Source: an uncultured Planctomycetaceae bacterium (GTDB lineage Bacteria; Planctomycetota; Planctomycetia; Isosphaerales; Isosphaeraceae). Taken from it: a stretch of DNA of 64,000 nt. The notes beneath the pieces were generated by a model. That model saw only the letters and a list, made by a program, of their open reading frames with translations. It was not told the DNA's origin and made no database searches. The stretch lies in contig CAWIAD010000001.1 in the NCBI GenBank assembly GCA_963833985.1, positions 1,248,001 through 1,312,000 of the forward strand, in the 5' to 3' direction. The translations under genes and the position numbers were made by a program. Positions 1,809-13,735 of the stretch are shown here, one piece after another (the first letter of the stretch is position 1; every line of letters starts with the position of its first letter).

Positions 1809-2060
1809 ATGTGTCTGGGGATACCCGGCAAGGTCGTGGAAACGTTCCATGAGGACGGAGTTCTCATGGGTAAGGTTGATTTCGGTGGAATCCAGAAGCA
1901 GGTCTGCCTGGAGCACGTCCCCGAAGCTGCAATCAGCGACTACGTGCTCGTTCACGTCGGCTTCGCGCTCTCGCGGATCGACCCGGAGGAAGCCGTCCGG
2001 GTCTTCGAGTTTCTGGAGCGGATGAACCAGCTCGACGAGCTGGAGGTGCCTCCGCCATGA
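1809..2060 (+). CDS. hypC: Hydrogenase maturation chaperone HypC
   Basis: MCLGIPGKVVE...DYVLVHVGFAL motif. Confidence 0.96.
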   Translation: MCLGIPGKVVETFHEDGVLMGKVDFGGIQKQVCLEHVPEAAISDYVLVHVGFALSRIDPEEAVRVFEFLERMNQLDELEVPPP

Positions 2061-3180
2061 AATACGTGGACGAGTATCGCGACGGCGAGGCCGCGGGAAG
2101 GCTGGCGCAGGCGATTGCGCAGCGTCACGAGGCCGTGGACGATCATGGAAGTCTGCGGCGGGCAAACTCATACGATCGTCAAGTATGGAATTGACCGGCT
2201 CGTGCCGTCCGCGGTGGAGCTGGTGCACGGCCCCGGCTGCCCCGTGTGCGTCACCTCCCTGGAGATGATTGACCGGGCGCTCGCCATCGCCGCGCGGCCG
2301 GAGGTGACCTTCTGCTCGTTCGGGGACATGCTGCGCGTGCCGGGCTCGCGGGGCGACCTGCTCCAGCTCAAGTCGATGGGCGCTGATGTGCGCGTGGTCT
2401 ACTCGCCGCTGGACGCCGTGAACCTGGCGGCCGAGCGGACCGACCGCCAGGTCGTGTTCTTCGCGATCGGCTTCGAGACGACCGCGCCGGCCAATGCCAT
2501 GGCCGTCTGGATGGCCCGCAAGAGGCGGCTGCGCAACTTCAGCGTGCTCGTCTCACACGTCCTGGTGCCGCCGATGCTGGAGGCCCTGCTCCAGGCGGAG
2601 GACAACCGGGTCCAGGGTTTCCTGGGGCCCGGCCACGTCTGCACCGTGATGGGGACCTCCGAGTACGAACCGATCAGCCGCCGTTTCCATGTGCCCATCG
2701 TGGTCACCGGCTTCGAGCCGCTCGATCTGCTCGATGGGATTCTCCGTACGGTCCGCCAGCTCGAGGGGGGCCGCGGAGAGCTGGAGAACCAGTACGCCCG
2801 CGCCGTGCGGCCGGAAGGCAACCTGCCCGCGCAAGCTGCTCGACGAGGTCTTCGAGGTCTGCGACCGCAACTGGCGCGGGCTTGGTCTCGTGCCCGCCAG
2901 CGGCTACACGCTGCGCCCCGCGTACCGCGCGCTGGACGCCGAGCAGATCTACCAGGTCGACCAGATCAAGACCGAGGAGTCCGCGGTGTGCATCAGCGGC
3001 CAGGTGCTCAAGGGGCTCAAGAAGCCCCATCACTGCCCCGCGTTCGGTACGCTGTGCACGCCCCAGAACCCGCTGGGAGCCACCATGGTCTCCAGTGAAG
3101 GCGCGTGCGCCGCGTATTATGCCTATGGCCGGCACCTGGAAACCAGCGCGCCCGCTGCGCTCCAGACTGCACAGGTCTGA
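2057..3180 (+). CDS. hypD: Hydrogenase maturation protein HypD (apparent frameshifts near 2120 and 2830)
   Basis: [67 protein letters not shown] overlap with hypC. Confidence 0.95.
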
Positions 3181-3216: not shown

Positions 3217-4317
3217 ATGGGCAAGATTGAACAACCGCTGGCGCAGGGCAACCTGGGCACCTGCCCGCTGCCGCAATCGAGGTACGACCATATTGTGCTG
3301 GGCCACGGCAGTGGCGGCAAGCTGACCTCGGACCTGATCGAGAAGCTGTTCCTGCCCGGCCTGGCCGACGGTGACGGACCGCTCGTCTCCCTGGAGGACC
3401 AGGCGACCCTGAGCCTGGGACCAGGCGGCCATGACGGCCGCGCCGCGCCGCGCATCGCCTTCACGACCGACTCCTTCGTCGTCCGCCCGCTCTTCTTCCC
3501 GGGAGGGGATATCGGGCAGCTCGCCGTTCATGGCACGGTCAACGACCTGGCCGTCGGCGGCGCCCGGCCGCTCTACATCTCGGCCGCCTTCATCCTCGAG
3601 GAGGGGCTGCCGCTGGCCGATCTGCGCAACATTGTCGCTTCCATGCGCCGGGCCTGCGCCCGGCGCAGGTCGCGCTGGTGACCGGCGACACCAAGGTGGT
3701 GGACCGGGGCAAGGGGGACGGGGTCTACATCACCACGTCGGGAGTCGGGCTGGTACCCGAGGGCCTGCGCGCTGTCGATTCACAACGCCAGGCCTGGAGA
3801 CGCCGTGCTCGTGTCGGGAACGCTGGGCGACCATGGCATTGCCGTGATGTCGGTACGCGAGGGCCTGGAATTCGAGACCGTGCTGGAAAGCGACACCGCG
3901 CCTTTGACAGAGCTGACCGAGGCTGTGCTGGAGGCGTGCCCGGAAACTCGCTGCATGCGCGACCCGACGCGCGGCGGGCTCTCGAGCACGCTCAACGAGC
4001 TGGCCGCGGCCTCGCATGTGGGCGTGGTCCTGGAGGAGTCGGCCATCCCCCTGCGGCCCGAGGTCGCCGGCGCCTGCGAGATGCTCGGGCTGGATCCGCT
4101 TTACGTGGCCAACGAGGGAAAGCTCGTGGCCGTTGTACCCCCGGACCGGGCGGCAGCCGCGCTCCACGCCCTGCGTTCGCACCCTCTGGGGCGGAATGCC
4201 GCGATCGTCGGCCGGGTCGTGGCCGAGCACCCCGGCCTGGTCACGATGCGCTCGCGCGTAGGCGGCCAGCGCGTGGTCACTTTACTGATGGGTGAGCAGC
4301 TACCGAGGATTTGCTGA
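3217..4317 (+). CDS. hypE: Hydrogenase maturation protein HypE (apparent frameshifts near 3660 and 3770)
   Basis: [42 protein letters not shown] and the diagnostic C-terminal LPRIC. Confidence 0.95.
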
Positions 4318-5183
4318 TGCCCGCGAGCAGCCCCCAGGATCGGCCCGCCGGGTCCGACCTGTCCGGCGCGAGTCTCCCCGAGATCGCGCCCAAGAAAGCC
4401 TCGCGGCTCATCCTGCTGCATGAGATCGAGGAGGGCATCGATGCGCTCGAGCGACCGCTCCTGGGACTTTTCTTCTCGGGCCTGTCCGCCGGCCTGGACG
4501 TGGGCTTCAGCCTCTTCCTCATGGCCGTGGTGCTGACCCGCGTGGAAGGCAGGATTGCCGAGCCGGTCGCGTCTCTGCTGCTGGCGAATATGTACTCCAT
4601 CGGATTCATCTTCGTCATCCTGGGGCGCTCGGAACTGTTCACGGAGCAGACGACGCTCGCCGTGCTGCCCACGCTCAGCGGCCGTGCCACGCTCGGGGCG
4701 CTGCTCCGCTTGTGGCTTGTGGTGTTCCTGGCGAACACGCTCGGCGCGGCCGCGTTCGCGGCGATCGTCAGCGAGATCGGCCCTGCGCTCGGGGTCATCA
4801 ATCCACACGCCTTCGGCAAGCTCGCGCACTCGGTCGTGGACCATCCGGCCCGCGCCATGTTCGAGAGCGGCATCCTCGCCGGCTGGCTGATGGGCCTGCT
4901 CTCGTGGCTCATCGCCGCCGCCCGGGACACGATCAGTCAAATTGTGCTGGTTTGGCTTGTAACTAGCGTGATCGGTTTTGCGAACTTGCACCACGCGATC
5001 GTCGGGACGGCAGAGGTGCTGGCAGGGGCGCTCACGGGTCAGGGCATCAGCGGCGAGGACATCGGCCGGTTCCTGGTCTTCGTGACGCTCGGCAACATCG
5101 TGGGCGGCGTCGTCTTCGTGGCGTTCCTCAAGTATGGCCTGGCCCGACCCGGGGCGCAGGCGGCATCGGTGGCGGATTCCTGA
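4317..5183 (+). CDS. Formate/nitrite transporter (FNT) family channel, YfdC-like
   Basis: About 6 TM helices; GRSELFTEQT, NTLG, LHHAIVG, TLGNIVGG motifs; TGATG overlap with hypE. Confidence 0.88.
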   Translation: MPASSPQDRPAGSDLSGASLPEIAPKKASRLILLHEIEEGIDALERPLLGLFFSGLSAGLDVGFSLFLMAVVLTRVEGRIAEPVASLLLANMYSIGFIFVILGRSELFTEQTTLAVLPTLSGRATLGALLRLWLVVFLANTLGAAAFAAIVSEIGPALGVINPHAFGKLAHSVVDHPARAMFESGILAGWLMGLLSWLIAAARDTISQIVLVWLVTSVIGFANLHHAIVGTAEVLAGALTGQGISGEDIGRFLVFVTLGNIVGGVVFVAFLKYGLARPGAQAASVADS

Positions 5184-5207: not shown

Positions 5208-6304
<1,097 letters not shown>

Positions 6305-6317
<13 letters not shown>

Positions 6318-8104
6318 CTGCTCCCCAGCGCACCCGGGCATCCGACACCGGCAAGCTCGTGGAGATGTCCTGGGACCCCATCACCCGCATCGTGGGCAGC
6401 CTGGGAATCTACACCAAGATTGATTTCGCCAACCGGCAGGTCGCCGAGTGCCACAGCACCTCATCGATCTTCCGCGGTTACAGCATCTTCATGAAGGGGA
6501 AAGACCCGCGCGATTCGCACTTCATCACCAGCCGGATCTGCGGCATCTGCGGCGACAACCACGCCACCTGTGCCTGCTACGCCCAGAACATGGCCTTCGG
6601 CGTGCGCCCGCCCGACATGGGCGAGTGGATCGTCAACCTGGGCGAAGCCGCGGAATACATGTTCGACCATAACATCTACCAGGATAACCTGGTCGGTGTC
6701 GACTTCTGCGAGCAGATGGTCAAGGAGACGAATTCCGGCGTCTGGGACAAGGCGCAGCACACGAACTCGCCCCATTACGGCGACCACCCGTACCGCACCA
6801 TCGCCGACATCATGCGGGCGCTGAACCCGTTCACCGGCGAATTCTACCGCGAAGCCCTGCTCATGAGCCGGATGACGCGGGAGATGTTCTGCCTCATGGA
6901 AGGGCGGCACGTGCACCCCTCCACCCTCTATCCCGGCGGCGTCGGCACGGTCCCCACCCAGCAGCTCTTCACCGACTACCTCGTGCGCCTCATGAAGTAC
7001 GTCGAGTTCATGAAGAAAGTCGTCCCCATGCACGACGACCTCTTCGACTTCTTCTACGAGGCGCTCCCCGGCTACGAGGAAGTGGGCAGGCGGCGCGTCC
7101 TGCTGGGCTGCTGGGGCTCGTGGAACGACCCCAAGGTGTGCGACTACACCTACCGCAACATGAACGAGTGGGGCAAGGCGATGTTCGTCACGCCCGCGGT
7201 GATCGTGGACGGCAAGGCGGTGACGAACAACCTGGTGGACATCAACCTGGGCATCCGCATCCTGCTTGGCCACTCCTACTACGATGACTGGGGCGAGGAT
7301 GGCGAGGTGTTCGTCCCGCGCGATCCCCTGGGCAACCCGGTCGATCGCCGGCATCCCTGGAACCAGACCACGATCCCGCGCCCGCAGAAGCGCGATTTCA
7401 ACGGCAACTACTCCTGGGTGATGTGCCCGCGCTGGCTCGATCCCAGCACCGGCGACCACCTGGCACTCGACACCGGCGGCGGACCCATCGCCCGGCTCTG
7501 GGCCACGGCGCTGGCGGGCCTTGTTGATATCGGGTACATCAAGGCCACCGGCCAGAGCGTGAAGATTTACCTGCCCAAGACGATGTCGCTGCCGGACGTC
7601 GAGTTCGAGTGGAAGATTCCCAGGTGGAGCAACGCCATCGAGCGCGACCGGGCGCGGACCTACTTCCAGGCCTATTCAGCCGCGGCCGCGCTCTACTTCG
7701 CCGAGCGGGCGATGGAAGAGCTGCACGCCGGCCGGACGCGCACCTGGACCGACTTCAAGGTCCCCGAGAACGCCATCGGCTGCGGCTTCCATGAGGCGGT
7801 GCGCGGCGTGCTGTCGCATCACGTGGTGATCCGCGACGGCAAGATCGCCAACTACCACCCCTATCCGCCCACGCCCTGGAACGCGACCCCGCGCGACGTT
7901 TACGGCACGCCGGGCCCCTACGAGGACGCGGTGCAGAACACGCCCATCTTCGAGGAGAACGGCCCCGACAAGTTCAAGGGTATCGACATCATGCGGGCGG
8001 TGCGCAGCTTCGACCCGTGCCTGCCCTGCGGCGTGCACATGTACCTGGGCAACGGCAAACTGCTCGATGTGAAGCACGTGCCGATGTTCGGAGCACACTC
8101 GTAG
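6305..8104 (+). CDS. hhyL: Group 1h [NiFe]-hydrogenase large subunit
   Basis: EMSWDPITRIVGSLG, L1 motif TSRICGICGDNH, L2 motif RSFDPCLPCGVH followed by a cleavable C-terminal tail. Confidence 0.95.
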
Positions 8105-8144: not shown

Positions 8145-8173
8145 TTCGCCGCACGGCCAGGGGGAGCGTGACG

Positions 8174-8719
8174 ATGGATTCTCCGGAACTGCGTGCCTTT
8201 CAGGACCAGCTCGGGCGGCTTGACTCCTTGCTCCGGAGCATCGGCCGTCTGGCGGATACCCCGGCGGGAGAGCAATACCGCGACGCGGTGCAGGCCATCC
8301 TGGACCTTCATGGCTCCGGCCTGGCGCGCCTGCTGTGCTTGCTGCAAGACGCCGGGGGCGAAGGCGCGAAGGTCCTCGACGCCTGCATCCGCGACGAGAT
8401 CGTGGGGGGGCTGCTGCTCCTGCACGGCCTGCATCCGCAGAGCCTGGAGGAGCGCGTGCACGAGGCCCTCGAGCAGGTGCGTCCCTTCCTCCGCTCACAT
8501 GGGGGGAACGTCCAGCTTCTGCGCATCAACGACGGCGTCATCAGGCTCCGGCTGGAGGGAAGCTGCCACGGCTGCCCCTCCTCCGCCGCCACCATGAAGC
8601 AGACCATCGAGGAGGCCATCCTGGGGCGGGCGCCCGATGCGATCGGAGTGCAGGTGGAAGGCGTCGTGGAAGAGCCCGCCGTCACCCCAGGGGGCCACGC
8701 GCTTCACGTTCTTCAATAA
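8174..8719 (+). CDS. NifU-family Fe-S scaffold-like protein of group 1h clusters
   Basis: LLLHGLHP followed by NifU domain VRPFLRSHGGNV...GSCHGCPSS. Confidence 0.9.
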   Translation: MDSPELRAFQDQLGRLDSLLRSIGRLADTPAGEQYRDAVQAILDLHGSGLARLLCLLQDAGGEGAKVLDACIRDEIVGGLLLLHGLHPQSLEERVHEALEQVRPFLRSHGGNVQLLRINDGVIRLRLEGSCHGCPSSAATMKQTIEEAILGRAPDAIGVQVEGVVEEPAVTPGGHALHVLQ

Positions 8720-8761: not shown

Positions 8762-8962
8762 ATGGCCTGGTTCGATTCTCGATCCGAGCTGCCCGCGCAC
8801 ACGCCGGGCGCGCCCCGTGGTGAGGATCTGGTACGCCGGCTCGGCCGGGAGCCGGGCCGCGAGCGCAGGAAGGGAGGACGCACGGCGCGCGATGCGACCA
8901 GCATCAACCCCGAGGCGCGCGACCCGATCGATCCGCAGATGCCGCATCTTCCTCCTGCATGA
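8762..8962 (+). CDS. Small hypothetical protein of the type seen in group 1h clusters
   Basis: GGGAG RBS; RTARDATSINPEARDPIDPQMPHLPPA tail; lies within the operon. Confidence 0.65.
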   Translation: MAWFDSRSELPAHTPGAPRGEDLVRRLGREPGRERRKGGRTARDATSINPEARDPIDPQMPHLPPA

Positions 8963-8974
8963 GGCAACACCATC

Positions 8975-9600
8975 ATGGTTCCGGTCCAGACCGACTCGGA
9001 CTGTGATCTGCCCCCGCTGGCATCGATCCGCAGGTTCCTCCGGCCCAGGCCGTGCGCGAGCATTGCGGCCTGTGTCACCTGGAACTGGGCGATGAGCACG
9101 CGCACCTGGTGGAGTCTGCGTCACACCGGCTGATCTGCGCGTGCGATGCCTGCGCCCTGCTCTTCAGTGGCCAGGGCGCAGCGCGGTATCGCCAGGTCCC
9201 GCGCCGGGTACGGGCGGTCCCCGGCTTCGCCATGAGCGATGCCACGTGGGACGCGCTTCAGCTACCGATCAACCTGGCCTACTTCATGCACAGCACGGCG
9301 GCCGGCCGGGTGATCGCCCTCTACCCGAGCCCCGCCGGCGCCACCGAGGCGATGGTGGAGCCGGGCGCATGGGAAAGCCTGGCGGAACAGAACCCGGTAC
9401 TGCGCGAGCTCGAACCCGACGTGGAAGGGCTGCTGGTCAACCGGGTCGGCGAGACGCGCCAGTATTTTCGGGTCGGCGTTGACCAGTGCTATCGCCTGGT
9501 CGGCGTGATCCGCACCCACTGGCGCGGGCTCTCCGGAGGGGCGCTTGTCTGGGGCGAGATCGCGCGGTTCTTCGATGAGATCCACCAGCGAGCCTCGTGA
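8975..9600 (+). CDS. DUF5947-like hydrogenase-associated protein (apparent frameshift near 9050)
   Basis: EHCGLC...CACDAC, YPSPAGATE, LEPDVEGLLVNR, WRGLSGG. Confidence 0.8.
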
Positions 9601-9617
9601 AGCAGAGAAAGGGATTC

Positions 9618-10271
9618 ATGCCAGACCTGAGCTTCCAGGTTCAGGGAGCCGAGCCCGAGCGTGATGCGGCCGTGCCGGCCCTGCGCTTCGCGCTGGAGGT
9701 CCGGGAACAGGGCGATCCGCCAACCCCCATCCACTCCGTGGCCCTGCGTTGCCAGATCCGCATCGAGCCGGCACGCCGGAGCTACAGCGGCGCCGAGCGG
9801 CAGCGGTTGCTCGATCTCTTCGGCACGCCCGACCGCTGGGGCCAGACGCTCCGTCCCATGCTCTGGACGCACACCATCGCCACCGTGCCGCCTTTCACGC
9901 GGCAGATGAGCGTGGGGCTGGTCGTCCCCTGCAACTTCGACTTCAGCCTGGCCGCCACCCGTTACTTCAGTGCCCTCGAGGACGGTGACCTGCCGCTCTG
10001 CTTCCTCTTCAGCGGCACGATCTTCTTTCAGGGTGACGAAGATCGCTTGCAGATCGCGCAGATCCCCTGGGAGAAAGAAGCCGTCTACCGGCTGCCGGCG
10101 CGCACCTGGCAGGAAGTCCGCAAGCACTACTATCCGAACACCTCCTGGCTCGGCCTGAGCAGCGACCTGTTCGATCGCCTGGAAGAGTATCGCCGCGCCC
10201 GCGGATTGCCGACCGCCGAACAGGCCCTGGAAAAGCTGCTGGGCGCGGTTGCGGGAGCAAACAAGCCATGA
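9618..10271 (+). CDS. DUF6084-like hydrogenase-associated protein
   Basis: ALRCQIRIEP, LFGTPDRWGQTL, FLFSGTIF, PWEKEA, YYPNTSW. Confidence 0.8.
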   Translation: MPDLSFQVQGAEPERDAAVPALRFALEVREQGDPPTPIHSVALRCQIRIEPARRSYSGAERQRLLDLFGTPDRWGQTLRPMLWTHTIATVPPFTRQMSVGLVVPCNFDFSLAATRYFSALEDGDLPLCFLFSGTIFFQGDEDRLQIAQIPWEKEAVYRLPARTWQEVRKHYYPNTSWLGLSSDLFDRLEEYRRARGLPTAEQALEKLLGAVAGANKP

Positions 10272-11337
10272 ACCGAGCCCCCGTGGACCTTATCGCCCGC
10301 GCCGTGCTCTACGAGGGGTACATCCTCTATCCATACCGTCCCTCGCTCAAGAACCGCCAGCGCTGGACGTTCGGCGGGCTCTATCCTGAGGGCCATTGCG
10401 GCGTCCGGGCAGGGACCGAGAGCTGCGAGCAACGGACCGAGTGCCTGGTGATCGGAACGCCGCGAACACGCGTGGAAGTGGTGGTCCGTTTCCTGCACCT
10501 GAGGGCCCGCCGGCTGGGCGCGATCGAGCCGCCCCTCGACGCATGGAGCAGCAGCGACGAGCCGCCGTCGCGGCCCGTCGAGTCGCTCCAGGTGGACGGC
10601 CGGTCGTTCCATGCCTGGCAAGAGGCCCAGGAGCGCGAGATCGTCTGCCGCCCGCTCACGCTCGGTGCGCTCTCGCCGGGACCTTCGTGCAAGAGTTCCA
10701 GTTCTCCGGCAGCCGGAGCTGGGAGCCGTTGCGAACACCCGCGTCGGGCGCGATCGCGGGCGTCTTGATCCGCGAGCAGCACAGCATCGCGGGCACCATC
10801 GAGCTCTCGGCCGTTCAGCTCGAAGCCACGCTTTTCGGGCTCGCTGCCCGTACCGTGAACCGGACGCCCCTCACCGATCCGCATCGCTTGACACGCGATG
10901 AAGCGCTCGAGCGTGCCCTGGCCTCGACGCACGCCATCCTGGGAGTGGCAGACGGCGCCTTCGTCTCGCTCACGGACCCGCCCGAGGCGTGCCGGCAGGC
11001 CGCTGCCGCCTGCCGCAACGTGGGAGCCTGGCCCGTGCTCGTGGGAGCGGAAGGGGAGACTAGCCTGATGCTCTCAGCGCCGATCATCCTCTATGACTAT
11101 CCGCAGGTGGCGCCCGAAAGCCCCGGAGACTACTTCGACGGGACCGAGATCGACGAGATGCTCACCTTGCGGATCATGACCATGACGGACGATGAGAAGG
11201 CGGCCATGTCCGCCGTGGATGAGCGGGCCGGCGCCTTGCTGGCACGCACCGAATCGCTCGCGCGCCGGCAGCTTCTCGGTCTCCACGGCACCTTCCGCAT
11301 TCCTGGCGAGAGCCAGGCAGGAGGTCAATCGTGCTGA
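10268..11337 (+). CDS. Conserved hydrogenase-associated hypothetical protein (apparent frameshift near 10680)
   Basis: AVLYEGYILYPYRPS...RWTFGG in one frame; SAPIILYDYPQVAPESPGDYFDGTEIDEMLTLRIMTMTDDEK in the next. Confidence 0.8.
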
Positions 11338-11639
11338 GCTGGGACCCCGATGATGGCCTGCGCAAGCTCGAGTGCCTCCACGTCGGGGCGTACGAGCTGC
11401 GGGCGGGCGACCGCGTGCGGCTGCGTCCCAGGCGACGGGCCGACATCCTGGACCTGGCGCTGGAGGGGAAGGCCGCCACCATTGCCTCGATCGAGCTGGA
11501 TTTCGAGGGCCGCTTCCACCTCGCCGTGACGGTGGATGACGACCCGGGAAGCGACCTGGGCACGCTTCGTCATCCCGGACACAGGTTCTACTTCCTGGCC
11601 GATGAGGTGGAACCTCTGGATGCCGGAGGCACCCCATGA
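11331..11639 (+). CDS. Conserved hydrogenase-associated hypothetical protein
   Basis: GDRVRLRPRRRADILDLALEGK...DDDPG...RFYFLADEVEPL; overlaps both neighbours. Confidence 0.75.
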   Translation: MLSWDPDDGLRKLECLHVGAYELRAGDRVRLRPRRRADILDLALEGKAATIASIELDFEGRFHLAVTVDDDPGSDLGTLRHPGHRFYFLADEVEPLDAGGTP

Positions 11640-12193
11640 CCACGCGCTACCGGATCGACGCGTCACAGAGCCGGTTCACCGTTCACGCCGATGCCACGGG
11701 GATGCTCTCGGTTCTCGGCCACAGCCCCACCTTCGCCGTCGGAGACTATCAGGGCCACGTCCACTTCGACGACGACCATCCGGGCCGGATCAATCTCGAC
11801 GTAGTCGTCAGGGCCGATTCGCTGGTCCTCACCGACCACGTTTCGCCGGCGGACCGGCGCGATATCGAGCAGCGCATGCGTGCCGAGGTGCTGGAAACGT
11901 TTCACTATCCCGAGATCCGCTACGAGGCCTGGGACAGCTCGTCCGTCGCTTCGCGGACGGCCCCTTTTCACGTGCGCATGACCGGGCGGCTGTCGCTGCA
12001 CGGAGTGACCCAGCCGCAGCCGTTCGATGCCGAGATGCGCGTCTTCCACGACGGCATTCACCTCATGGGGAGCTGCTCGCTCTGGATGTCCCGGTTCCAG
12101 ATCAAGCCCGTGACGGCGCTCGGTGGGGCCATCAAGCTGAAAGATGAGCTGAAGGTCTCCGCCACCATCGTCGCCTTGCCGGAGGCGTCGTGA
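11636..12193 (+). CDS. YceI-family (polyisoprenoid-binding) protein, no signal peptide
   Basis: YRIDASQSRFTV, VLETFHYPEIRY, GRLSLHGVT, FQIKP; ATGA and TGATG overlaps with neighbours. Confidence 0.82.
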   Translation: MTTRYRIDASQSRFTVHADATGMLSVLGHSPTFAVGDYQGHVHFDDDHPGRINLDVVVRADSLVLTDHVSPADRRDIEQRMRAEVLETFHYPEIRYEAWDSSSVASRTAPFHVRMTGRLSLHGVTQPQPFDAEMRVFHDGIHLMGSCSLWMSRFQIKPVTALGGAIKLKDELKVSATIVALPEAS

Positions 12194-12732
12194 TGCCCTG
12201 CCGCGTGCTGATCGCCTGCGTCGGCAACATCTTCCTGGGCGACGATGCGTTCGGCGTGGAGGTCGCTGGCCGGCTTCGGGGGATCGACCTGCCCGAGGGC
12301 GTTCGTGCCGTCGATTTCGGGATCCGCGGCCTGGACCTGGCGTACGCCCTGGCGGACGGCTGCGAGTCGCTCATCCTGGTCGACGCCGTTCCCCGCGGTG
12401 GAGCGCCTGGAACGCTCTACGTGATGGAACTTCCCACGGTGCATGATGCGCAGGCGGCTGAGGGCACGCTGATGGGCGGACACAATCTCCACCCGGTGCA
12501 CGTGCTTCAGCATGCCGCGTGCCTGGGTGCCCGTGTCGAGCGTCCCATTCTGGTTGGCTGCGAACCTCAACCCGCCGACGAATCCGACGACTTCGGTACC
12601 GGGCTGAGCGCCCCGGTGGCCTCGGCCGTGGACGCGGCGGTTCCCCTGATCGTGTCGCTTGCCACGAAACTCCTCCGCGGAGAAGAGATCGCGGCGAGTG
12701 CGGACCTTGTCCCCTTGCAAGAAGGAAACTGA
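12193..12732 (+). CDS. Hydrogenase maturation endopeptidase
   Basis: VGNIFLGDDAFGVEV, DFGIRG, ILVDA, HNLHP, VGCEP. Confidence 0.92.
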   Translation: MPCRVLIACVGNIFLGDDAFGVEVAGRLRGIDLPEGVRAVDFGIRGLDLAYALADGCESLILVDAVPRGGAPGTLYVMELPTVHDAQAAEGTLMGGHNLHPVHVLQHAACLGARVERPILVGCEPQPADESDDFGTGLSAPVASAVDAAVPLIVSLATKLLRGEEIAASADLVPLQEGN

Positions 12733-12735
12733 GCC

Positions 12736-12948
12736 ATGCTAGGACTGACATCCGAGCCAACGCGCCATCTGTTCGGCCGTTCTGAAGACGGCTGGCGTGA
12801 AAGAACCGGACTGGCCGAGTGGGAGCGCGCCGGGGGTCCGCCCTTGCGGTGGCTGGTCACCGGCGCCGTCGTCCTCGGCCTGGGGGTGCTTGCCTGGAGC
12901 TATCTGGGACCGGACCTGAGGCGCTATGTTAAGATTCATCGAATGTGA
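12736..12948 (+). CDS. Small single-TM protein (DUF6893-like)
   Basis: Hydrophobic stretch followed by PDLRRYVKIHRM. Confidence 0.7.
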   Translation: MLGLTSEPTRHLFGRSEDGWRERTGLAEWERAGGPPLRWLVTGAVVLGLGVLAWSYLGPDLRRYVKIHRM

Positions 12949-13046
12949 TGGAGCCGGAAGGCGGGTCGGAAGTGGGACATCGCTCAGCGCGGCGTTCCAT
13001 CCGCAGCGGCTGGAATCTCGTCGTTGCTCTTGAGCTTGACTCATGA
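12948..13046 (+). pseudogene. 32-codon ORF at the hypA position; probable hypA remnant
   Basis: MEPEGGSEVGHRSARRSIRSGWNLVVALELDS*; TGATG overlap upstream, ATGA overlap with hypB; C-terminus resembles the HypA end but MHE and CxxC motifs are missing. Confidence 0.5.
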
Positions 13047-13735
13047 ACGAAAATCCTCGGCTGGTCCAGGTGCGCCAGCATGTGCTCAAGCACAACGATA
13101 CGATCGCCCGGGCGCTGCGCGCGCAGTTCCAGGCGGCCGGCACGTTCGTCGTCAGCCTGGTGTCGAGTCCGGGCTCCGGCAAGACCGCTTTCCTGGAGCG
13201 AGTGCTCTCTGCGCTGGGCAGCCGCAACCGCGTGGCCGCCCTGGTGGGCGACCTCGCCACCGAAAACGACGCGCGCCGGCTGGCGCGGAGCGGCGTGGCG
13301 GTGAAGCAGATCATCACCGGCACGGTCTGCCACCTCGACGCCGACATGGTCACGCGGGCCCTGGACGGCTGGCCCGGCTCGCCGCTCGACTTCCTGTTCC
13401 TGGAAAACGTGGGCAACCTGGTCTGCCCCGCCACGTTCGATCTGGGCGAGGCGCTGCGGCTGGTCCTCTTCTCCGTCACCGAGGGCGAAGACAAGCCGCT
13501 CAAGTATCCCACCATCTTCAACACGGCCGACGTCGCGGTGATCACCAAGCTCGACCTGTCTGACGCCGTGGAGTTCCAGCGCGAGGCCGCGTATCGGAAT
13601 ATCGAGGCGGTCCGTCCCGGCATGCCCGTCTGGGAAGTCTCGGCGAAGACTGGCGCCGGTCTGGACGCCTTCGTGGCCTTCCTCGCGGCGCGCCGGGAAA
13701 GCGCGGCAGCCGACGCGTGCACCGCAAGCCGCTGA
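13043..13735 (+). CDS. hypB: Hydrogenase nickel incorporation GTPase HypB
   Basis: SSPGSGKT, CHLDA, ENVGNLVCPA, EGEDKPLKYP, TKLD, VSAKTG. Confidence 0.96.
   Translation: MNENPRLVQVRQHVLKHNDTIARALRAQFQAAGTFVVSLVSSPGSGKTAFLERVLSALGSRNRVAALVGDLATENDARRLARSGVAVKQIITGTVCHLDADMVTRALDGWPGSPLDFLFLENVGNLVCPATFDLGEALRLVLFSVTEGEDKPLKYPTIFNTADVAVITKLDLSDAVEFQREAAYRNIEAVRPGMPVWEVSAKTGAGLDAFVAFLAARRESAAADACTASR

Follow-up and report, generated by a model that had tools for sequence, protein, structure and literature searches.

A signal-less, hydrogenase-linked variant of the YceI family with a possible role in electron transfer from group 1h hydrogenases

A hydrogenase operon with an embedded yceI gene

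The window, i.e. the whole 64,000-nucleotide stretch of an uncultured Isosphaeraceae (Planctomycetota) genome that was analysed, harbours a hydrogenase operon with the gene order hypC-hypD-hypE-FNT-hhyS-hhyL-nifU-like-66-aa peptide-DUF5947-DUF6084-hhaC-102-aa gene-yceI-protease-DUF6893-hypB. The hypA and hypF genes are found elsewhere in the genome, outside the cluster. Group 1h hydrogenases let soil bacteria live on H2 from air.

1809-2060, + strand: hypC (family profile)
2057-3180, + strand: hypD, with two frameshifts (family profile)
3217-4317, + strand: hypE, with one frameshift (family profile)
4311-5183, + strand: formate/nitrite transporter (FNT) family channel, between hypE and hhyS (family profiles)
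5208-6317, + strand: hhyS, group 1h small subunit, without Tat leader or transmembrane (TM) helix (family profiles, TM scan)
6305-8104, + strand: hhyL, group 1h large subunit (family profiles; 82% identity to the C. necator pHG1 enzyme)
8168-8719, + strand: NifU-like HhyE, short form, no Rieske/rubredoxin-type C-terminal domain detected (family profiles)
8762-8962, + strand: conserved 66-aa peptide, no Pfam family (conservation)
8975-9600, + strand: DUF5947 (HhaA-type) gene, with a probable frameshift near its 5' end (Pfam)
9597-10271, + strand: DUF6084 (HhaB-type) gene (Pfam)
10268-11337, + strand: HhaC-type hypothetical gene, about 355 aa, with a frameshift near 10690 (ORF reading)
11331-11639, + strand: conserved 102-aa accessory gene, no Pfam match (conservation)
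11636-12193, + strand: signal-less YceI/lipocalin beta-barrel of 185 aa, hydrogenase-linked His-x-Pro clade (Pfam, AlphaFold2 model, tree)
12193-12732, + strand: hydrogenase maturation endopeptidase (PF01750, TIGR00072)
12736-12948, + strand: DUF6893 one-helix membrane peptide of 70 aa (Pfam, TM scan)
13043-13735, + strand: hypB (family profile)

HhyL harbours the L1 and L2 Cys motifs. It is 82% identical to the large subunit encoded on pHG1 of C. necator H16, a hydrogenase classed in group 1h (PMC7174314), and 73-77% identical to actinobacterial large subunits. The genes downstream of hhyL, coding for NifU-like, DUF5947, DUF6084 and HhaC-type proteins and for the protease, are those of group 1h clusters. 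Based on its similarity to the C. necator enzyme and on these accessory genes, we predict the hydrogenase of the window to be a group 1h enzyme.

A sequence scan of HhyS revealed neither a [ST]RRxF Tat motif nor a TM segment, and none of the 16 window proteins scanned with Pfam matched a cytochrome b family. The first-pass annotation, which had described HhyS as devoid of a Tat leader and the operon as devoid of a cytochrome b anchor, is borne out on both counts. Among the 12 operon proteins scanned for TM segments, the FNT channel has seven, DUF6893 one and the protease a marginal one, and the others have none. An FNT gene lies between hypE and hhyS in five of 80 YceI loci, including some other planctomycete clusters. 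A scan for promoters and terminators yielded no more sites than shuffled sequences, and a look-up of sequencing runs covering positions 9600-13000 listed none from RNA.

Five frameshifts are spread over hypD, hypE, the DUF5947 gene and hhaC, and the reading frames of yceI, hhyS and hhyL are intact. Elsewhere in the genome, nine of the 60 genes that could be tested against relatives are split across frames. The five frameshifts of the operon are mildly in excess of the expected number (about 1.6; P about 0.02). Their simplest reading is indel errors of the assembly, the alternative being decay of this operon copy. A glutamine synthetase-like gene identified by eye upstream of hypC (515-1504, - strand) is also split by a frameshift, which fits indel errors.

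Several small or hypothetical proteins of the operon were also analysed. The 66-aa peptide has a Pro-rich motif at its end and was seen in 37 loci, mostly after the NifU-like gene; its look-alikes in the ESM Atlas belong to unnamed clusters from Actinomycetota and Planctomycetota. We rejected it as an obligate partner of YceI: just 22 of the 74 complete clusters selected by YceI harbour it, and it is also found without YceI. The counterpart of the 102-aa gene in the plasmid clusters L083-L086 is a stretch inside a larger hypothetical gene that precedes the protease gene. A model of an HhaC-type protein (L125:10369-11436) predicts a long beta-sandwich and a helical tail, and the region of its C-terminal acidic motif is highly conserved. 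HhaC was discarded as an alternative lipid carrier, as the best match of this model is a beta domain of DrmA from DISARM (7s9w; Z 9.9, rmsd 4.7 Å, 182 aligned residues), with no lipid-binding fold among the matches listed.

The yceI ORF is intact, with no internal stop. Its product matches the Pfam family PF04264 over residues 5-180 (E 3.6e-15, 57 bits for a cut-off of 23.7) and over the full length of the profile (positions 1-150 of 150), and databases already label it 'YceI family'. With 25.6 bits for a cut-off of 232 against NF002994, the E. coli-type YceI equivalog, and with no periplasmic leader, it falls outside that subgroup. The domain starts at residue 5 and a hydropathy scan detected no hydrophobic segment; thus, no signal peptide is predicted. 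Almost every one of the 120 best homologues listed has a length of 183-190 aa. The ATG start at 11636 overlaps the TGA stop of the 102-aa gene (ATGA), and the stop codon (12191-12193) overlaps the protease ATG at 12193 (TGATG). The protease has an alternative, in-frame GTG start at 12190. The GC3 of yceI (0.86) lies within that of its neighbours (0.77-0.92). The genome encodes two further YceI proteins, both with leader-like N-termini.

Structure prediction, which the first-pass annotation had suggested as a check, yielded an AlphaFold2 model with a pLDDT of 87. Its closest structures are all YceI proteins (5ixh, 1y0g, 5ixg, 7bwl and 1wub; Z 20.0-20.4), the next fold having a Z of 10.8. The rmsd values to B. 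cenocepacia BcnA (5ixh), E. coli YceI (1y0g) and T. thermophilus TT1927b (1wub) are 2.3-2.4 Å over 157-163 residues. The protein is thus modelled as an extended, 8-stranded antiparallel YceI barrel, and a search of the ESM Atlas with it returned only YceI clusters. Pfam, the model and the hydropathy scan therefore concur with the first-pass call of a YceI-type gene without a signal peptide, and the coupling that it had noted on both sides of the gene is also found. The known YceI barrels, which also include BcnB (5ixg) and P. aeruginosa PA0423 (7bwl), share with the window protein the extended 8-stranded barrel, the inward hydrophobic pattern and conserved glycines. Nevertheless, the solved proteins are only 13-20% identical to it in structural alignments and, unlike them, it has no leader and harbours a G-x6-H-x-P loop as well as a hydrophobic loop with GG at its end.

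Residues G22, H29, P31, G117, G164 and D170 are invariant in our YceI alignment A4, and conservation reaches 80% or more at 43 columns in a set of 134 members whose identity goes down to about 35%. We selected 38 inward positions by strand alternation from the sequence and secondary structure, without coordinates. In the 134 sequences, 95% of the residues at these positions are hydrophobic or small and 0.4% are charged, a test that is partly circular because of the way in which the positions were picked. G40, G117 and G145 are conserved at 96-99%, and A18, A20, A132 and A180 at 81-93%; these residues would make room for a chain in the predicted tunnel. The median pI of the protein is 6.0, and it has no membrane anchor of its own. 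Decay of the window copy was rejected, since it departs from its relatives at five of the 43 conserved columns (F19, R36, R142, F147 and F176) for a median of four, and is no outlier.

The signal-less clade and its link to hydrogenase clusters

A profile search of 1.84 billion representatives yielded 256 matches at E values up to 1e-30, the best 150 of which were used. These split into two types, signal-less proteins with the G-x6-H-x-P loop and leader-bearing proteins with an H-x-H motif. A FastTree phylogeny of 181 sequences places the signal-less, hydrogenase-linked proteins in a single clade (support about 0.83-0.85) that branches from within the secreted group; two leader-bearing sequences fall inside this clade. 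Residues T15, Q17, A18, F19, A20, S25, P31, E76 and E171 are specific to the clade. The uncharacterized secreted sisters with a G-x6-H-x-H loop, from Acidobacteriota, Gemmatimonadota and others, have G22, H29, G40, G117, H122, G123, G145, G164 and F176 in common with the window protein. They differ from it in having signal-like leaders, a His at position 31 where it has Pro, and variation at positions 15-20, and they show no link to hydrogenases. As His29 and both putative capping loops are also found in these secreted proteins, they are not adaptations to the hydrogenase.

A scan of GTDB with a 109-sequence YceI alignment confirmed 117 relatives. The best 80 of these, a set biased to close kin of the query, were analysed in their genetic environments. 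According to the record titles, 57 are from Acidobacteriota, 19 from Planctomycetota, two from Gemmatimonadota and two from others, one of which belongs to Acidobacteriota in GTDB. Every one of the 80 loci has a hydrogenase gene within 10 kb of yceI; hhyL itself is present in 75, and the number rises to 78 when 1h-type accessory genes are counted as well. Nine of these 80 loci harbour a tandem pair of yceI genes. The placement of yceI varies: it may precede the protease gene, follow the DUF6084 gene, or follow the protease-DUF6893 pair and precede hypC or hypA.

Searches of genome sets, free of that bias, gave the same picture. The 301 Acidobacteriota genomes contain 32 YceI profile matches, 11 of them signal-less H-x-P proteins that all sit in hydrogenase clusters. 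Hydrophobic leaders and unrelated neighbours were found for all 19 proteins examined of the 21 other matches. Among 201 Gemmatimonadota genomes, three have matches above 170 bits, all in 1h clusters. A single signal-less YceI, L111 on a 5-kb contig, was seen without a hydrogenase gene nearby. Cultured soil strains with a hydrogenase-linked YceI include Pyrinomonas methylaliphatogenes K22 and Tunturiibacter (L037, L042, L045 and L049). An extension of the clade to Betaproteobacteria was rejected, as the record so labelled (L074) groups in the same GTDB phylum as Pyrinomonas. Thus, the gene that the first-pass annotation had seen as embedded in this operon belongs to group 1h clusters as a dedicated component, far more often than chance would allow.

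Patchy presence of YceI among group 1h clusters

The link is one-way: a signal-less YceI almost always lies with hydrogenase genes, but a 1h cluster does not imply a YceI. Searches of 121 Isosphaeraceae genomes, with thresholds of E up to 1e-150 for hhyL and at least 80 bits for YceI, detected hhyL in 39, YceI in 30 and both in 21. Fifteen of the 18 hhyL-only genomes have clusters that are complete past the protease gene and devoid of YceI, and the clusters of the other three stop at contig edges. The nine YceI-only genomes comprise six in which the gene is beside frameshifted hhySL or 1h accessory genes, one with a frameshifted cluster elsewhere, the L111 case and genome G401. For Acidobacteriota, YceI is present in nine of 13 hhyL genomes versus one of 288 others, as a copy next to hypF at the start of a contig. 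A search with HhyL gave 80 metagenome loci; 29 of them extend 2.5 kb beyond the protease gene, and 22 of these 29 carry YceI. None of the five plasmid-borne 1h clusters viewed, of 13 records, harbours YceI (C. necator, Methylocystis parvus, Kitasatospora, Streptomyces and M. chimaera). Chromosomes were sampled outside Actinomycetota and Chloroflexota, and a random 401-genome phylum sample, with only two hhyL genomes, was uninformative.

With these proportions (21/39, 9/13, 22/29 and 0/5), YceI is not a core or universal accessory gene of group 1h clusters. The co-occurrence count proposed by the first-pass annotation therefore gives a mixed answer. The association recurs in three phyla, but YceI is missing from 15 complete clusters of Isosphaeraceae, four of 13 hhyL genomes of Acidobacteriota, seven of 29 complete metagenome clusters and all five plasmid clusters. 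In a tree of 125 HhyL sequences, the presence of YceI changes at least nine times. The YceI-bearing clusters form one weakly supported HhyL clade (0.66) with absences inside it, and YceI is thus an accessory of one branch. Since the co-occurrences of YceI and hhyL are not independent, we did not rely on Fisher tests of these tables. A comparison of 101 HhyS sequences from YceI-bearing clusters with 29 others revealed no residue cleanly specific to the former.

DUF6893 is closer to universal in 1h clusters than YceI is. In most 1h clusters, whether or not they carry YceI, a DUF6893-like one-helix peptide comes after the protease. A profile detected them in 107 of 108 YceI-positive complete clusters versus 12 of 33 YceI-negative ones, and divergent versions were found by eye in several more YceI-negative clusters, including that of Methylocystis. 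Long forms are encoded in 69 of 93 YceI-positive versus four of 14 YceI-negative clusters with a call, figures that rest on noisy start calls and only two supported independent pairs. In some YceI-positive loci (L024:10688-10798, L068:10661-10777 and L164:17654-17818), the opposite strand encodes a second, short DUF6893-type peptide in addition to the long one adjoining YceI.

Other features of 1h clusters were noted along the way. In many acidobacterial-type clusters (e.g. L140:402-3945, L144:4764-8579 and L075:1454-4946), the genes just upstream of hhySL encode, in this order, an additional orphan small subunit (about 70% identity to HhyS), a PAS histidine kinase and a response regulator of the LuxR type, and 54 loci have a second small-subunit match. 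This set may sense H2 or the redox state for the 1h operon. Stand-alone second hhySL pairs (77-79% identical) without accessory genes are present in the Isosphaeraceae loci L090, L093, L096, L097, L120, L121 and L122. The four of them that were included in the HhyL tree join L117 in one weakly supported branch. A nuo (complex I) operon comes immediately after the 1h cluster of the M. chimaera plasmid (L142:18874-25740).

Candidate roles of the hydrogenase-linked YceI

Most solved YceI proteins hold octaprenyl phosphate, octaprenylphenol or ubiquinone-8 in their tunnel (PMC9113575), and a prenyl ligand is therefore the default expectation for the family. The signal-less YceI is probably a purposely retained, putatively prenyl-binding accessory of these clusters, a much safer claim than that of a shuttle. 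More tentatively, and with chances that we put somewhat below even, it may be an optional, CoxG-like carrier or presenter of menaquinone.

The M. smegmatis 1h enzyme is reported to feed the menaquinone pool by a route described as unresolved (10.1101/769216; PMC6883350), and membrane association appears important for the high affinity of 1h hydrogenases (PMC7174314). The genome under study has two PF02621 genes (MqnA/MqnD family) of the menaquinone pathway. CoxG is described as a small, soluble domain that takes menaquinone out of the membrane into a hydrophobic cavity and serves a soluble trace-gas enzyme, the Mo-CO dehydrogenase (PMC12202499). It has an SRPBCC fold, a C-terminal membrane helix of its own and demonstrated quinone binding, whereas the window protein is modelled as a YceI barrel, has no anchor and is assigned a carrier role by analogy. 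The absence of the SRPBCC fold and C-terminal anchor lowers the case for membership among CoxG proteins, not the proposal that it works like them.

The first-pass annotation had likened the protein to the quinone-transport stalk of the group 2a enzyme Huc. That stalk, HucM, is a structural enzyme subunit forming a tetrameric coiled-coil tube (PMC10017518). HucM addresses the same problem, how to reduce menaquinone at a distance from the membrane, but YceI is a globular beta-barrel in our model and is missing from many clusters; thus, it is not of the HucM type, and CoxG, as a soluble carrier domain, offers the closer analogy. HhyE of M. smegmatis, a putative Fe-S protein required for Hhy activity, is a candidate link between Hhy and respiration (PMC6883350). 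A NifU-like gene is also found in the window. YceI does not take the place of HhyE, and the idea of YceI as a substitute for a Rieske-bearing HhyE was rejected, as the Pyrinomonas cluster carries a NifU plus Rieske-like protein together with YceI.

The signal-less YceI probably descends from a secreted subfamily whose leader was lost, and its hydrophobic tunnel is predicted to have been kept. As a carrier, it would bind a polyprenyl chain, with menaquinone as the most likely source, and ferry this ligand between the inner membrane face and the hydrogenase, which has no anchor. The invariant His29 and the hydrophobic loops 22-31 and 158-164 may cap the head-group end of the ligand, and the clade-specific, outward stripe T15/Q17/F19 with P31, E76 and E171 might represent a partner surface. 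The one-helix DUF6893 peptide may provide in trans the membrane tether that CoxG has in cis. Because many clusters are devoid of YceI, it would supplement a more basic connection to the membrane rather than replace it. The first-pass proposal of a cytoplasmic YceI as the quinone link of group 1h enzymes therefore survives in part. A dedicated, cytoplasmic-type YceI with hydrophobic or small inward positions supports it, but its absence from many complete clusters speaks against a general solution. The absences, the lack of a co-varying HhyS residue, the lack of an anchor and the median pI of 6.0 all count against a shuttle. A complex prediction for HhyS (residues 17-350) and YceI with alignments of 89 rows each scored 0.00 in the absence of folded controls, and counts neither way. 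The most elaborate version is doubtful. It holds that, in Acidobacteriota, Planctomycetota and Gemmatimonadota, a periplasmic quinone-binding lipocalin lost its export signal and became a soluble menaquinone shuttle for the 1h enzyme, with DUF6893 as a separate tether. Such a 'split CoxG' would represent a third, independently evolved route of out-of-membrane quinone reduction in trace-gas oxidation.

The main rival to the carrier is a helper of maturation or assembly, although we consider it unlikely. YceI would then bind a hydrophobic ligand, or a hydrophobic stretch of a maturing subunit or of DUF6893, alongside the Hyp proteins and the protease. The recognized neighbours of yceI are nearly always such maturation or accessory genes (protease, 102-aa gene, hypC, hypA or hypF). 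Moreover, six split clusters keep YceI with hyp or accessory genes and not with hhySL, in the arrangements hypF-yceI (L013), hypF-hypE-yceI (L112 and L114) and yceI-hypCDE (L050), or in accessory-plus-maturation blocks without hhySL (L002 and L116). As YceI is already among maturation genes, however, breakpoints would leave it there by position alone, and L075 represents the opposite case, with YceI next to hhySL-NifU-DUF5947 and no hyp gene in the 20-kb locus.

Two genomes have kept YceI with other hydrogenases, which also favours a maturation role. In G401 (99% complete, three contigs), an intact YceI follows hypF-hypE, and we found no 1h large subunit or DUF5947 and only a Hox-type NAD-linked enzyme. 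In G1031, a Gemmatimonadaceae, the sole large subunit among its matches is 42% identical to HhyL, with an N-terminus that we take to resemble that of group 1l. This non-1h uptake hydrogenase is encoded with two protease-like genes and a NifU-Rieske-like gene (L258:5100-9065), and the 1h-type YceI gene precedes hypCDE on another contig. Nevertheless, G401 is a single genome and G1031 a fragmented assembly. The lone second hhySL copies of Isosphaeraceae without YceI are consistent with a maturation role as well, but other [NiFe] hydrogenases are known to mature via Hyp proteins without YceI.

Less likely still is a cytoplasmic antioxidant or quinone store, in which YceI would bind quinol or oxidized lipids in starved, H2-respiring cells and be co-regulated with the hydrogenase without ever touching it. 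Such a role would mirror, in the cytoplasm, the one proposed for BcnA, a YceI protein that guards against peroxidation of membrane lipids (PMC9113575), and it would account for the optional presence of YceI, its tandem copies and the absence of a co-varying HhyS surface. It leaves unexplained why the signal-less clade hardly ever strays from hydrogenase genes, L111 being the one exception seen. In addition, the window yceI is in a hydrogenase operon with no cytochrome b561 partner beside it, whereas bcnA has a linked gene for cytochrome b561 (PMC9113575).

The least likely reading is that of a passenger inserted once in an ancestral cluster, moved along with transferred operons and lost time and again, with H2 oxidation hardly affected; the single HhyL clade with repeated absences, in which co-occurrences are not independent events, is compatible with it, but the 43 conserved columns, the fixed clade-specific residues, the tandem duplications and the persistence of the gene through operon rearrangements argue against it.

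Full-text searches, which cover few subscription papers and no figures or figure labels, found no paper joining YceI, hydrogenase and group 1h. Papers containing both 'YceI' and 'hydrogenase' look unrelated as judged by their listing. In the same type of search, neither 'polyisoprenoid' nor 'YceI-like' occurred in the papers listed on high-affinity hydrogenases, and no paper dealt with Isosphaeraceae and group 1h. 'YceI' is absent from the accessible text and one supplement of a comparative paper on acidobacterial 1h operons (PMC5900883), and from the main text of the CoxG paper (PMC12202499). The protein is thus a real, apparently undescribed, hydrogenase-linked variant of a known family, with a candidate role in electron transfer.

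Even if confirmed, a YceI carrier would explain only one branch of the 1h enzymes. Natural pairs of related clusters with and without YceI allow their H2 affinities to be compared. For the route from group 1h enzymes to the quinone pool, described as unresolved (PMC6883350; 10.1101/769216), a small soluble protein from a family known to bind prenyl quinones, found with these clusters in cultured soil strains, offers one possible answer that can be tested directly.
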